From a candidate division FCPU426 bacterium (lineage in GTDB: Bacteria > Oederibacteriota > PGYV01 > Palsa-1178): a DNA stretch of 64,000 nt. Where the stretch lies: the NCBI GenBank assembly GCA_963840035.1, contig CAWIXE010000002.1, positions 192,001 to 256,000 on the forward strand. Reading direction: 5' to 3'. This document shows, in pieces, positions 27,716 through 39,016 of this stretch (the first letter of the stretch is position 1; every line of letters begins with the position of its first letter). The notes under the pieces were generated by a model, which was not told where the DNA came from, ran no database searches, and saw only the letters and a list, made by a program, of their open reading frames with translations. A program made the translations under genes and the position numbers.

Positions 27716-27725
27716 TGGCTGTTGT

Positions 27726-27837
27726 GCCAACCAACGTTCCATCACACCCACTTGAGCCTTGAGCCAACCAACGTTCTATCACACCCACTTGAGCCTTGAG
27801 CCAACCAACGTTCCATCACATCCACTTGAGCCTTGAG
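27726..27837. repeat. Three tandem 37-bp C-rich repeats, inverted relative to the upstream array
   Basis: gccaaccaacgttccatcacacccacttgagccttga at 27726, 27763 and 27800; reverse complement matches the ggctcaagtggttgtgaaggaagctgggtggc segments upstream. Confidence 0.88.
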
Positions 27838-27873
27838 ACAACCATGTTTTTAATAACCAACATAAAAATCCCC

Positions 27874-27923: not shown

Positions 27924-27998
27924 CAAATTAGGCATGTTTAACGTTAAGAGTTGAAAGTTTAGGGTTATAGACATTGTTAAGAAGATGTGTTTACAGTT

Positions 27999-28113
27999 TG
28001 TCATTGCGAGGAGCCGCAGTTGGCCTATGGCGACGAAGCAATCTCGTTTTCTCCTTCTGGAACAGCGAGATTGCTTCGTCGGCAAGTAACAAAAACGCCT
28101 CCTCGCAATGACA
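27999..28113. repeat. TGTCATTGCGAG REP-like inverted doublet
   Basis: tgtcattgcgaggag...gacgaagcaatctcg paired with cgagattgcttcgtc...ctcctcgcaatgaca; same family as 36981-37890. Confidence 0.88.
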
Positions 28114-28213
28114 AGCATAAGACTATAAACAGAACATGTTAACATTAAAGGTTATAGACAGGAATGTATCTGCTGTAACCATAAATTTTAAACTGTATTA
28201 AAGGAGGCCGTTC

Positions 28214-34509: not shown

Positions 34510-36913
34510 ATGACTGAAGTAGCAGCACAGGCAGTTACACAAACTGTCGCAGTCGCAGCCGAAGTTGTCACAAAGGCAGCCGAGCACATTAAACTTGCTC
34601 CGCTCACGTCTTTTGAGAACCTGGCGCTGTGGGTAGTCTGGGGCACGTCCTTACTCGCCCTGGTTTATGGTTTTTACTTGATGGCCGAGATCCTCGGCAA
34701 GTCAAGGGGAACCCAGAAAATGATCGAGATCAACGCGGAAATCAAGAAGGGCGCAAAAGCTTACTTGATCAGGCAGTTTTCAACCATCATCTGGCTCGTT
34801 CTCGGATTGATGGCGGTATTGTATTTCACCACGGTTGTAGACCCGTCACTCGGGTACTCGCCGGAACAGATGCTGAAGATCAAGATCGGAAGGGCGCTCG
34901 CGTTCTTCCTCGGAGCCCTGGCTTCGGCAGTAACAGGAACAGTCGGAATGCTCTTAGCCGTTGAAGGTAATGTAAGGGTAGCGGCAGGCGCGGTAGCAAA
35001 AGGAAAGAAAGAAGCTTTAACAATAGCGTTCAGGACAGGTTCCATCGCCGGAATGTTCACCATCGGCCTTGGCCTTCTCGGCGCAACTTCGATATTCTTA
35101 ATATTCCAGACTGAAGCTTCAGCCATCTCTGACGTTCTCGTCGGATTCGGCTTCGGCGGATGCCTGCTCGCTCTCTTTATGAGGGTCGGCGGCGGAATAT
35201 TCACAAAGGCAGCGGACGTTGGAGCTGACCTCGTAGGAAAAGTTGAAAAGAACATACCGGAAGATGATCCCCGCAATGCAGCGACGATCGCCGATAACGT
35301 TGGAGACAACGTGGGCGACTGCGCAGGCATGGCCGCGGACATTTTCGAGTCATACGAAGTAACGCTCGTTGCCGCCATGATACTCGGCGCGACAGTGTTT
35401 GGAAACATGGGAGTTATCTTCCCGCTGTTTGTCCGTGCCGTCGGAGTTATCGCTTCGATCATCGGAACATACGCAGTAGTTTCAAAGAGCGAAGAAGAGC
35501 ACGCGATGAAGCCGATTCAGAGGGGCTTCTGGCTTGCTTCAGTACTTTCCATCGTCGGCTTCGGTATCATCACGGTTATGTACCTGATACCCGCAATCGG
35601 CGAATGGATGGCCAAGAAACCGGAACTGTTCGCGGGCTCGCCTGCAAACGGCGCCACGATCCTCGGCTGGAAACTTTTCATCATCACCACGGTCGGTATT
35701 ATCCTCTCGTTCCTCATCTCACAGATGACGGAACACTTCACCACAACAGAGGCTAAGCCGGTCCAGGACATAGTAAAATCAACGCTCACAGGCCCTGCGA
35801 CAGTTATCCTCGCGGGAACCGCTGAAGGCTTAGAATCATCGGTATGGGCGATCATTTCAATCGCCGTATCGCTGGCGGTATCGATCCTGGTATTTGCCAT
35901 AATGCCGGTGGGAACAGCGGCGGCAATCACCATGCAGACCCTTTACGGAATAGCTTTAATCGGACTTGGAATGCTCACAGTTACAGGTATCATCGTTTCC
36001 GAAGACACATTCGGGCCGGTATCTGACAACGCGCAGGGCATCGGCGAGATGGCAAAGCTTCCGGAAAAAGGACGCAAAGTGCTTGATGAGCTCGACGCAG
36101 TAGGAAATTCCACAAAAGCAATCACCAAGGGATTCGCGATCGCGACAGCCGTTATCGCTGCCGTATCGCTTTTCGCTTCATTTAACGAAGTAACAGGCGT
36201 GCCGTTCATCAATCTTCTCAAGCCCGATAGTTTTCATCGGCTTGTTAATCGGCGGCGCGGTACCGTTCCTCTTCTCGTCACTTCTTATCCGTGCCGTTGG
36301 AAGGGCAGCGTTCCTGGTTGTTAACGAAGTAAGAAGGCAGTTCAAGGAAATCAAGGGCCTGATGTCCGGCAAAGCTAAACCTGAGTCGGCAAAGGTTGTT
36401 GATATCTGCACAGCAGCGGCGCTGAAAGAACTCGTTTCACCCGCATTGCTCGCGATCCTTATGCCTGTTGCGATTGGCTTCCTGTTCAAGGCTGAAGGCC
36501 TTGGCGGATACCTCGCGGGCGTAATCCTCGTGGGACAGCTTATGGCTGTATATCTCAGCAACGCCGGCGGCGCGTGGGATAATGCCAAGAAATCCGTCGA
36601 ACAGATGGGCTTCAAAGGCACAGACAGGCATAAAGCGGCGGTCATCGGCGACACAGTCGGCGACCCGTTCAAAGACACAGCAGGACCGGCGTTAAACCCG
36701 CTCATCAAGGTCATGAACCTTGTTGCGCTGCTTATCGCCCCGATACTCGTCAGCCCGGCTTTCACAGGCGCGAACGCGTACAGCTGGCCCGTTATTGCGG
36801 TGGTAGTTGTATGCCTCGGAGTTATTGCCTGGGGACTTATGATGTCAAAAAGGGAAGATGAGACATCGGAAAAGATAGCTGAAGAAGTAGCTGCGAAGAA
36901 TAAGAAGAAATAA
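34510..36913 (+). pseudogene. hppA: Membrane H+-translocating pyrophosphatase, K+-independent type, split by a single-base insertion (possibly a sequencing error)
   Basis: [43 protein letters not shown]. The second frame carries GGAWDNAKK and GDTVGDPFKDTAGP. Removing one C from CCC at 36223-36225 restores ...[18 protein letters not shown]. Confidence 0.9.
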
Positions 36914-36931: not shown

Positions 36932-36965
36932 AAAGGGCCGGCGGAAACGCCGGCCTTTTGTTTTT
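36932..36965 (+). terminator. Rho-independent terminator after hppA
   Basis: ggccggcg-gaaa-cgccggcc + ttttgttttt. Confidence 0.85.
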
Positions 36966-36980
36966 AAAGCAGGATATTGT

Positions 36981-37026
36981 TGTCATTGCGAGGAGGCGTT
37001 CTAGACTTATGCCGACGAAGCAATCC
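36981..37026. repeat. TGTCATTGCGAG REP-like element upstream of GIY-YIG gene
   Basis: tgtcattgcgaggaggcg...gacgaagcaatcc. Confidence 0.85.
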
Positions 37027-37095
37027 CTGTTTTACTGATAAGCCGTAGAATTTGTTAAATGCAGGGTTTAATATTCATTCTTACGGAGGGTAAAA

Positions 37096-37389
37096 ATGAA
37101 TAAACAGTGCTATATTTATATCATGACTTGTAACAGCAATAAGGCTTTATATATAGGGGTTACAAACGACCTTATCAGGCGTGTCCGGGAGCATAAAAAT
37201 AAAGTGGTAAAAGGTTTTACCAGCAGGTATAATGTTGACCGCCTAGTTTATTATGAGGTGTTTGAGGATATAGAAAACGCTATTATAAGGGAAAAGCAGC
37301 TTAAGGGCGGGAACCGCAGGAAAAAGGAAGCGCTGATTAACGGTTTTAACCCGCAATGGAAAGATTTATATGATAGTGTCATTATTTGA
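37096..37389 (+). CDS. Small stand-alone GIY-YIG nuclease family protein
   Basis: YIYIM...LYIGVTNDLIRRVREHK, GFTSRYNV..LVYYE, AIIREKQLK, NPQWKDL. Confidence 0.93.
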   Translation: MNKQCYIYIMTCNSNKALYIGVTNDLIRRVREHKNKVVKGFTSRYNVDRLVYYEVFEDIENAIIREKQLKGGNRRKKEALINGFNPQWKDLYDSVII

Positions 37390-37392
37390 GAT

Positions 37393-37890
37393 TGTCATTG
37401 CGAGGAGCCGTTTTAGCCTTGTGGTGACGAAGCAATCTCGGTTTCATCGATAAGACTTAAGCATAGTCCTGCATAAGAACAGAGATTGCTTCGTCGCTGA
37501 GGGGATTGCTCCTCGCAATGACAGGCAAACAAAGATAAGCTTCAAACTGTTTAAGATTGTCATTGATGGCTGATTCTGTCATTGCGAGGAGGCGTTCTTG
37601 ATTTATGCCGACGAAGCAATCCCAGTTCCACCGATAAGCCTTACAACAAAGTACCTGCATAAGAACAGAGATTGCTTCGTCGCTGAGGGGCGCGCTCCTC
37701 GCAATGACAGGCAAACAAAGATAAGCCTTACAACAAAGTGCCTGCATAAGAACAGAGATTGCTTCGTCGCTGAGGAGCTCGCTCCTCGCAATGACAGGCA
37801 AACAAAGATAAGCCTTACAACAAAGTGCCTGCATAAGAACAGAGATTGCTTCGTCGCTGAGGAGCTCGCTCCTCGCAATGACAGGCAAAC
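37393..37890. repeat. Cluster of six TGTCATTGCGAG REP-like elements: two inverted doublets, the second extended into three tandem 87-bp units
   Basis: Forward copies at 37393 and 37577; reverse copies ending 37523, 37709, ~37796 and ~37883; tandem units start at 37633, 37720 and 37807. Confidence 0.92.
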
Positions 37891-37915
37891 ATAAAAAAAC
37901 AACAGGAGAAAAACA

Positions 37916-39016
37916 ATGGAAGTAGGGATTGTAGGACTGCCTAATGTCGGAAAATCAACGACATTTAACGTATTAACAAAAACCAAAGGCGCGGCTGTCG
38001 CCAATTACGAGTTCTGTACCATAGAACCAAACGTGGGGATCGTGGCGGTACCTGATGAACGTCTTGATTTCCTATATAAGGTTTATAATGACGGTAAGAC
38101 AACTTATGTGCCTGCTTCTTTTAAGTTCGTGGACATCGCAGGCCTTGTTAAAGGCGCGTCAAAAGGCGAAGGCCTTGGCAATAAGTTCCTTGCCAATATC
38201 AGGGAAGTGGATACTATAGCGCATGTCGTCCGTGTGTTTACTGACGCCAATGTTATCAGGACGAAAGGCAAGTTAGATCCCATCAGCGACATTGAAACCA
38301 TTGAAACCGAACTCATGCTCGCCGACTTGGAGAGCGTTACAAAAGGATTTTCAAAGATTGAAAGGACAGCCAAGTCAGGAAACGACAAAGAAGCGCTTAT
38401 TAAATACAATGTGTTAAAGAAAGTAAAAGACACCCTTGAAAAAGGCATGCCCGCCACCGCGGCAGGGCTGACTAACGAGGAAAAACCCATGGTAAAAGAA
38501 CTCGGCCTGATGTCGCTAAAGCCTATGCTTTATGTTTTGAACACGGACGAGGATAAAATCGAGGGTTTTGAAAAGTTCTTTCCGGAACTGGTAGAGTATA
38601 TAAAGAAGAGAAACGCCGAATACGTAGTCATATCCGCGAAGATTGAGGGCGAGATGATGGAGTTAGGCGAGGATGAAAGAAAAGAATACTTAAAGGAACT
38701 CGGCTTTGAATACAAAGGTTTTGACGAATTCATACAGCACGCCTACAGGCTGCTGGACCTGATAACGTTCTTAACAGCAGGAGCGCAGGAAGTCCGCGCC
38801 TGGCCCATTAAACGCGGGTCAAAGGCTGAAGAAGCGGCCGGCAAAATTCACTCCGACATCCAGCGCGGGTTTATTAAGGCTGAGATAATGAAATTTGAGG
38901 AATTTAAGAACGTGAAAGACGAGCTTAAGATGAAGGAAATGGGGCTGATGCGCTCTGAAGGCAGGGATTACATAATGCAGGACGGGGATATGGTGCATTT
39001 TAAGTTTAACGTGTAG
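37916..39016 (+). CDS. ychF: Redox-regulated ATPase YchF (Obg family)
   Basis: GIVGLPNVGKST, FCTIEPN, DIAGLVKGASKGEGLGNKFL, AGKIHSD, EGRDYIMQDGD..FKFNV. Confidence 0.97.
   Translation: MEVGIVGLPNVGKSTTFNVLTKTKGAAVANYEFCTIEPNVGIVAVPDERLDFLYKVYNDGKTTYVPASFKFVDIAGLVKGASKGEGLGNKFLANIREVDTIAHVVRVFTDANVIRTKGKLDPISDIETIETELMLADLESVTKGFSKIERTAKSGNDKEALIKYNVLKKVKDTLEKGMPATAAGLTNEEKPMVKELGLMSLKPMLYVLNTDEDKIEGFEKFFPELVEYIKKRNAEYVVISAKIEGEMMELGEDERKEYLKELGFEYKGFDEFIQHAYRLLDLITFLTAGAQEVRAWPIKRGSKAEEAAGKIHSDIQRGFIKAEIMKFEEFKNVKDELKMKEMGLMRSEGRDYIMQDGDMVHFKFNV

Follow-up and report, generated by a model that had tools for sequence, protein, structure and literature searches.

An Ssn-type GIY-YIG nuclease gene set among bulged GTC-tagged hairpins in a candidate division FCPU426 bacterium

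Described systems nearest to the locus

The Ssn family (SsnA; CDD cd10448) was defined, together with its NTS/SRM hairpins, by Chenal et al. (2025, Nat Commun 16:2388; PMC11893778). In the parts of that paper on which we draw, the family consists of single-domain GIY-YIG proteins of ~94 aa, the genes of which are flanked by GTC-tagged hairpins (NTS/SRM). Neisseria SsnA binds its hairpin solely as single-stranded DNA (ssDNA) and cleaves the tagged strand, a few nucleotides upstream of the hairpin; cutting needs residues Y6, Y17 and E64, and a changed stem sequence abolishes the activity. Three further Ssn homologues cut near their own hairpins, so that four Ssn proteins altogether have been studied in vitro, and SsnA lowers transformation of N. 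meningitidis by NTS-bearing DNA ~5-fold. The layout is likened there to that of IS200/IS605-type transposases, REPs and BIMEs, and domestication is proposed (all PMC11893778).

A sequence-only reading of the locus described below had proposed a RAYT/REP-like pairing of nuclease and repeat, for which it held that no mechanism was established. On this last point it has been overtaken, as both the binding with site-specific ssDNA cleavage and the RAYT/REP/BIME parallel are already found in the portions of PMC11893778 cited here; since the Ssn system is published, the nuclease-repeat pairing is a rediscovery. Our literature search returned no paper joining GIY-YIG with 'repetitive extragenic palindromic' and, from 2024 on, only the Ssn paper. 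The locus is a variant within Ssn, combining a hairpin outside the published SRM pattern, a G72/K76 protein subtype and the capture of a hairpin doublet by a MITE-like element.

The CGTC-tagged REPs (Di Nocera et al. 2013; PMC3733652) have, in the text of that study used here, a (C/T)GTC tag, a stem starting AT and a head-to-head (HH) heterodimer arrangement with a 20-100-bp spacer; they are reported without a dedicated transposase, their dimers are also nested in longer palindromes, and the families CGTC-1 to -4 have 8-9-bp stems and 4-5-nt loops. The repeat of our source genome resembles them, as there described, in its unpaired tag, its stem starting AT, its HH heterodimers, its intergenic position and its lack of a linked tyrosine transposase, and differs in a 5-bp outer stem, bulges and a 14-34-nt insert; because of its bulged 5-bp stem and its length of 39-44 nt, it lies outside the four CGTC families as these are worded in that text. 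Bacterial MITEs are described in the same text as non-coding elements of 70-300 bp with 15-30-bp terminal inverted repeats (PMC3733652).

The nuclease gene and its hairpin array

The window, by which we mean the whole stretch of 64,000 nucleotides analysed, belongs to a source genome (G000) of 3.46 Mb that is 98% complete. Between hppA and ychF, as the sequence-only reading had it, stands a single gene (P0001; 37096..37389, + strand) for a 97-aa, single-domain GIY-YIG nuclease of Ssn type and G72/K76 subtype, preceded by GGAGG (37085..37089, +), which reads in the sequence like a ribosome-binding site. The left neighbour, hppA (H+-pyrophosphatase; 34510..36913, +), is split by a one-base frameshift near 36217 into two ORFs, both with Pfam matches; the reading frame is continuous there in relatives, and the break is either an assembly error or a recent inactivation. 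After hppA comes a GC-rich hairpin with a T run (36932..36965, +), terminator-like by eye and present in relatives with filled and with empty hppA-ychF gaps; the terminator scanner called no terminator at the locus, this hairpin included. The right neighbour, ychF, occupies 37916..39016 (+).

Around the nuclease gene lie one repeat upstream and six downstream, in the inverted doublets and 87-bp tandem units first proposed, a description that proved accurate. Copy 1, of A type and 44 nt long, lies upstream (36982..37025, +). Downstream, B-type copy 2 (37394..37437, +) and C-type copy 3 of 39 nt (37484..37522, -) form the left and right halves of doublet 1, and A-type copy 4 (37578..37621, +) and C-type copy 5 (37670..37708, -) those of doublet 2; both doublets are convergent. 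The two remaining minus-strand copies, 6 (37757..37795) and 7 (37844..37882), are C-type tandem duplicates derived from an 87-bp unit of spacer plus C-type hairpin, which is repeated head to tail three times at 37633..37898 with 93-97% identity to the first unit. The last three hairpin copies fall within this array, which is a local tandem duplication. The string GTCATTGCGAG has 9 occurrences in the window, all of them exact matches, where shuffled sequence gives 0.73 on average and at most 4 (one mismatch allowed).

An Rfam scan gave only chance-level miRNA matches, a promoter scan gave matches at chance level, and no NCBIfam family rose above its cut-off for the 97-aa protein or for three ORFs overlapping the hairpin array, which we read as spurious. 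One DNA sequencing run, in which the organism has a small share, yielded no contig spanning the doublet or the cassette, and no RNA run was among those listed. Elsewhere in the window, 27722-27844 holds three tandem copies of an unrelated ~37-bp unit, with similar arrays at G000:C2:256590 and 262055.

The Pfam GIY-YIG domain (PF01541) matches residues 5-77 of the 97-aa protein with E 4e-18, and the predicted structure (pLDDT 91.8) has as its best structural matches the GIY-YIG proteins BH0048 and Slx1; a sequence search of the PDB returned BH0048 alone (E 3e-6), there being no solved Ssn structure among PDB sequences. Membership of Ssn was judged by way of a proxy, the N. gonorrhoeae protein, in place of N. 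meningitidis SsnA: the single N. gonorrhoeae match is 47.8% identical over 95% of the length (E 4e-22), where the family is delimited by E<1e-10 over >75% of the length, and the 97 aa lie below the limit of 150 aa set for these single-domain GIY-YIG proteins. N. gonorrhoeae itself is listed as ssnA-positive by all four criteria in Supplementary Data 4 of PMC11893778, as far as we draw on that file. Its homologue gene is surrounded by 9 NTS-type hairpins, and the 5' end of that gene appears broken; searches of N. lactamica and N. mucosa genomes with the 97-aa protein as query found no SsnA.

Residues Y8, Y19, R29, H33, E66 and N85 are present, and Y8/Y19/E66 align with, and are spaced like, the catalytic Y6/Y17/E64 of SsnA; among 99 close homologues Y19 and E66 are found in all 99 and Y8 in 96. 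In a tree of 107 proteins from 111 loci (two loci without a match and two broken frames were left out), these 99 homologues, the Neisseria protein included, form one side of a branch supported at 96/98, with 8 small GIY-YIG proteins on the other; the set is small and carries a long-branch warning, and the bootstrap is not fully settled. The source genome has one ssn copy, which occupies the same site in two genera. Judged from its sequence, the gene at 37096-37389 is a further, predicted case of the single-strand-DNA nuclease system described as Ssn in 2025. It resembles the described systems in encoding a stand-alone GIY-YIG protein of ~95 aa that keeps the catalytic residues and is 48% identical to the Neisseria homologue, and in having, on both sides of the gene, GTC-tagged hairpins ending in an unpaired C, of which about a hundred intergenic copies are dispersed in the genome. 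It differs in the hairpin, a structure of 39-44 nt in which G/A-rich loops and a further, inner stem interrupt the 5 bp of ATTGC/GCAAT pairing, and in the protein, which has G72/K76 where W/W is invariant in homologues with SRM-like hairpins.

Linkage and spread of the repeat

A GTC-tagged hairpin lies within 500 bp of the gene at 92/99 close homologues, compared with 0/8 distant GIY-YIG genes and 17/500 random windows under the same detector, and hairpins stand on both sides in 53 of the 76 close homologues that have at least 300 bp of flank; 80 of these homologue loci come from metagenomes, as the best 80 among 576 matches, a set which leans to the query's neighbours and includes near-duplicates. 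Within the source genome, 7 hairpin copies are found within 1 kb of the nuclease gene, forming the largest cluster among the 101 genomic copies, and no copy comes closer than 9.5 and 93 kb, respectively, to the other two GIY-YIG genes. These figures uphold the RAYT/REP-like pairing proposed earlier and support the view that nuclease and hairpin repeat are cognate partners. As far as our sources describe RAYT/REPtron systems, the likeness lies in a nuclease gene flanked by cognate hairpins, in doublets genome-wide and in (here inferred) recognition of hairpins in ssDNA, while the window enzyme differs in being GIY-YIG, not HUH/Y1, and the tag in being GTC, not GTAG. We presume that covalent phosphotyrosine strand transfer, as in RAYT, is not to be expected of it.

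The source genome does contain 10 Y1_Tnp genes, and a RAYT or other HUH transposase could in principle have spread the repeat, leaving the GIY-YIG gene as a bystander in a repeat hotspot. However, all 10 lie at least 5.4 kb from any hairpin copy, there is no Y1 match at the nuclease locus, the 3/10 that sit in REP arrays have GTAG-type hairpins of their own, and the linkage of hairpins to Ssn genes recurs at 92/99 homologous loci, so that this explanation is highly improbable and nearly excluded. The three RAYT-like Y1 genes (G000:C2:1380708, C2:162615 and C1:545527), each set among 5-6 GTAG hairpins of its own, are ordinary REPtrons which coexist with the Ssn system in this genome. Two plasmid loci have hairpin-flanked Ssn genes in other surroundings, one in Planktothrix (L151) between an MmeI-like gene and drmA, and one in Azospirillum (L152) between sufB and sufC; these contexts suggest cassette insertion into operons.

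From homology and gene-repeat linkage together, we consider it probable that the nuclease binds the flanking GTC-tagged hairpin on ssDNA and nicks a few bases 5' of GTC. The enzyme would bind an extruded hairpin on single-stranded DNA, as the Neisseria and Wolbachia Ssn proteins do, and Mg-dependent, strand-specific cleavage would follow just 5' of GTC, to judge from the parts of PMC11893778 cited above. In a doublet one nick per strand would result, each just outside one end, and such nicks may serve as substrates for the host's recombination or repair, through which doublets could be copied into further intergenic sites. GIY-YIG enzymes hydrolyse DNA and cannot rejoin it as a HUH RAYT does, so that an Ssn protein could act as an initiator at best, short of a full transposase, and spread would need host repair or recombination. 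Since a changed stem abolishes the activity of SsnA, that enzyme is no guide to activity on the bulged ATTGC/GCAAT hairpin. The locus offers a clean pair of putative enzyme and substrate, the hairpin of which lies outside the SRM pattern.

The repeat family of the source genome counts 101 copies at 52 loci, comprising 40 pairs, 10 singles, a cluster of 4 and the cluster of 7; four copies lie inside ORFs of at least 150 aa. From its GTC tag and ATTGC each copy continues into a G/A-rich loop, a variable inner stem-loop and another G/A-rich loop and closes with GCAAT and C, in 39-44 nt overall and with bulges in the 5-bp outer stem. In DNA folding the tagged strand is the stabler in 80/101 copies (-3.9 vs -3.2 kcal/mol), by a program without sheared G-A pairs. 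Adjacent pairs are convergent in 43/44 cases, so that the GTC tags form the outer ends, and each of these 43 doublets joins different subtypes (36 A+B, 5 B+C, 1 A+C and 1 unclassified+A) across spacers of mostly 23-26 nt. This repeat may have some resemblance to a Rickettsia RPE. RPE-4/6/7 have ATGAC in common, and the text of PMC3767692 used here gives no sequence matching the repeat; GTCATTGCGAG used as literature search text gave matches unrelated by title. Very long arrays of short degenerate repeats (G000:C3:411895-424828 and C1:1146100-1151600) stand among the self-BLAST matches listed for the source genome, and these resemble Thr-rich repeats in the coding sequences of giant surface proteins.

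The doublet near 27999 that the sequence-only reading had taken to be free of any gene is present, at 28000-28112, as a B+A pair (28000-28043, +, and 28069-28112, -), but it is not free-standing: it forms the core of a 180-bp MITE-like element (27970..28149) with family consensus ends TGTACTGTTAA / TTAACAGTACA, set between 7-bp direct repeats GGTTATA (27963..27969 and 28150-28156). Counted outward from the GTC tags, the inverted ends of the family (TGTACTGTTAA consensus) lie at 30 and 37 nt. The source genome has 12 full units, this one and 11 more, of 179-218 bp and with common TG..CA-type ends; their 7-bp flanks match at 7/7 positions in 5, at 6/7 in 2 and at 5/7 or fewer in 5, where the background rate for matching at 6 or more positions is 0.3%, and a 173-bp variant of the unit has a 7/7 match. 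The family is thus short, non-coding and multicopy, with terminal inverted repeats and target duplication, as MITEs are; it differs from them in having an Ssn-type hairpin doublet as its core, and no autonomous partner was found in the source genome, where a transposase with these ends was sought around 13/18 rve matches and in the terminal sequences of a set of multicopy IS-like elements. A short duplication beside TG..CA ends is a mark of DDE transposases. The ends of the unit are well away from the expected Ssn cut sites, and they point to a mobiliser other than the nuclease.

Counting 14 full, variant or partial units, 26/101 hairpin copies are in MITE-like units and 75/101 are without MITE arms, so that about a quarter of the copies have also spread as passengers of this element. 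Since that quarter travelled within a MITE-like element, the mere dispersal of doublets is no sign of transposition by Ssn, and the MITE-borne copies are a caution for the question of what spreads CGTC REPs. Another possibility is that the repeats owe their spread to routes such as recombination, slippage or, as MITE passengers, a DDE transposase, the nuclease being a domesticated resident that trims hairpin-bearing ssDNA, for instance incoming DNA during transformation, as in N. meningitidis, or fork structures. The 12 full units with their ends and matching flanks, the single ssn copy at the same site in two genera and the ~5-fold drop in transformants with NTS-bearing DNA under SsnA (in the cited parts of PMC11893778) would all agree with it. 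However, three quarters of the copies (75/101) lack the arms, no autonomous element with these ends was found in the places examined, and no MITE arms are seen among the matches listed for a relative (G006) with 134 copies. We regard this explanation as quite possible, while not favouring it.

The nuclease and hairpin cassette has long been settled between hppA and ychF. An intact nuclease gene fills the hppA-ychF gap in G000 (93 exact-pattern copies in the genome) and in G006 (134); in G004 (7 copies) it holds a broken nuclease gene with decayed hairpins, and in G002 (3 copies) the region is not syntenic. The empty site that the sequence-only reading had suggested looking for was found in G001, G003, G005 and G007 (1, 0, 0 and 0 copies), and since these four form one clade (99/99), a single gain or loss event and an old cassette at this site are indicated. 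The three highest-copy genomes among 41 relatives each have an intact homologue with flanking hairpins. In a wider comparison of 60 phylum genomes, each at least 90% complete, at least 5 hairpin copies are held by 17/24 genomes with Ssn vs 8/36 without (medians 8 vs 0; Fisher p 4e-4, a value overstated since kin are not independent).

The proposed relation of repeat count to gene presence is a loose one, four relatives having 17-43 copies and no Ssn at E<=1e-18 (G056, 43; G034, 37; G054, 22; G010, 17). When counting is restricted to G72-type genes, the association is weak (8/13 vs 17/47 genomes with at least 5 copies, p 0.12; residue 72 was typed where matches had loci, 30/39). Five genomes with a G72 gene hold 0-1 copies, and G057, with 69 copies, has Ssn genes solely of W72 type; near none of the 14 GIY-YIG loci in G056, G034, G054, G010 and G057 is there a bulged ATTGC/GCAAT hairpin. 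Gene loss after expansion would explain the copies without Ssn.

Could the nuclease nevertheless be a dedicated mobiliser, a true equivalent of a REPtron or REPIN, the nicking of which directly makes new doublets? This would extend the binding-and-nicking reading and is compatible with it. All 43 convergent doublets are heterodimers with spacers mostly of 23-26 nt, as expected of a unit copied whole; the three highest-copy genomes have the intact homologue and flanking hairpins; no RAYT is near any hairpin copy in the source genome; and CGTC REPs are reported, in the text used, without a dedicated transposase (PMC3733652). Against this, high-copy genomes without an Ssn gene exist, 26/101 copies are in MITE-like units, and plain doublets have no consistent target duplication and no fixed boundary directly beside them. 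T stands at -1 in 68/75 non-MITE copies, and the flanks of 115 hairpins from other loci have no consensus except this T. We know of no strand-transfer chemistry for the GIY-YIG fold, and on balance a dedicated mobiliser seems to us doubtful. Recognition and nicking of the repeat, as the sequence-only reading supposed, remain likely; propagation by the nuclease, which it also supposed, is unproven, and the doublet that it cited sits in a MITE-like unit. A further candidate for a cut-site signal, G at -4, is found in 39/75 copies of the source genome and is absent in the 115 hairpins, and was rejected.

Hairpin type and residues 72 and 76

The published SRM pattern, HGTCWYN(0-2)YYVSBRHN(0-5)WNVSBRGN(0-2)RNCYNB, has 16 matches in the source genome, and none of them is a copy of the 101-copy repeat. 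Because it fails this pattern, we do not file the ATTGC/GCAAT repeat as an SRM but only as working like one. GTCATTGCG and GCAATC were not found in the 14 supplementary files of PMC11893778; the figures of that paper and of PMC3733652 may include this hairpin type. With such hairpins outside the pattern, the published association figures are probably undercounts, and an orthogonal ssDNA cutter is likely.

The hairpin types sort with two residues of the protein. Among 48 homologues flanked by the bulged ATTGC/GCAAT hairpin, Gly72 is found in 45 and G72/K76 in 33; W72/W76 is found in 26/26 homologues with SRM-like hairpins, and W72 in 16 of the 18 with a third hairpin type. In the phylum set the bulged hairpin also stands beside three Tyr72 genes and 1/11 Trp72 genes, and 7/15 Gly72 genes have none nearby. 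On a tree built with the residue 72/76 columns removed, the hairpin-type label changes 7 times vs 33.5 when shuffled. An independent-pairs test of G72 against hairpin type gave only 2 pairs on well-supported branches (p 1), so that co-evolution of residue 72 and hairpin type is not shown. Residues 71-76 read GGNRRK in the window protein and KWNRAW in the Neisseria protein, and these residues likely tune hairpin preference; residues 72/76 are a testable two-residue candidate for hairpin specificity.

More speculatively, a large Ssn subfamily might have switched to a bulged, non-canonical, G-A-paired hairpin that the published pattern misses, with a short helix-loop segment (residues 71-76, G..K for W..W) encoding an orthogonal specificity and nicks outside doublets seeding CGTC-type REP dimers. 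We think this combination unlikely; if true, it would provide a simple specificity code for orthogonal ssDNA cutting and a means of seeding REP dimers that are reported to lack a transposase.

Three homologue loci (L203, L238 and L225) combine features of both types. Two of their proteins join an SRM-type N-terminal half to G72 and have the bulged ATTGC/GCAAT hairpin beside them, and beside the third, a W72/W76 protein, stands a close variant of that hairpin; these loci are possibly recombinants or independent switches.
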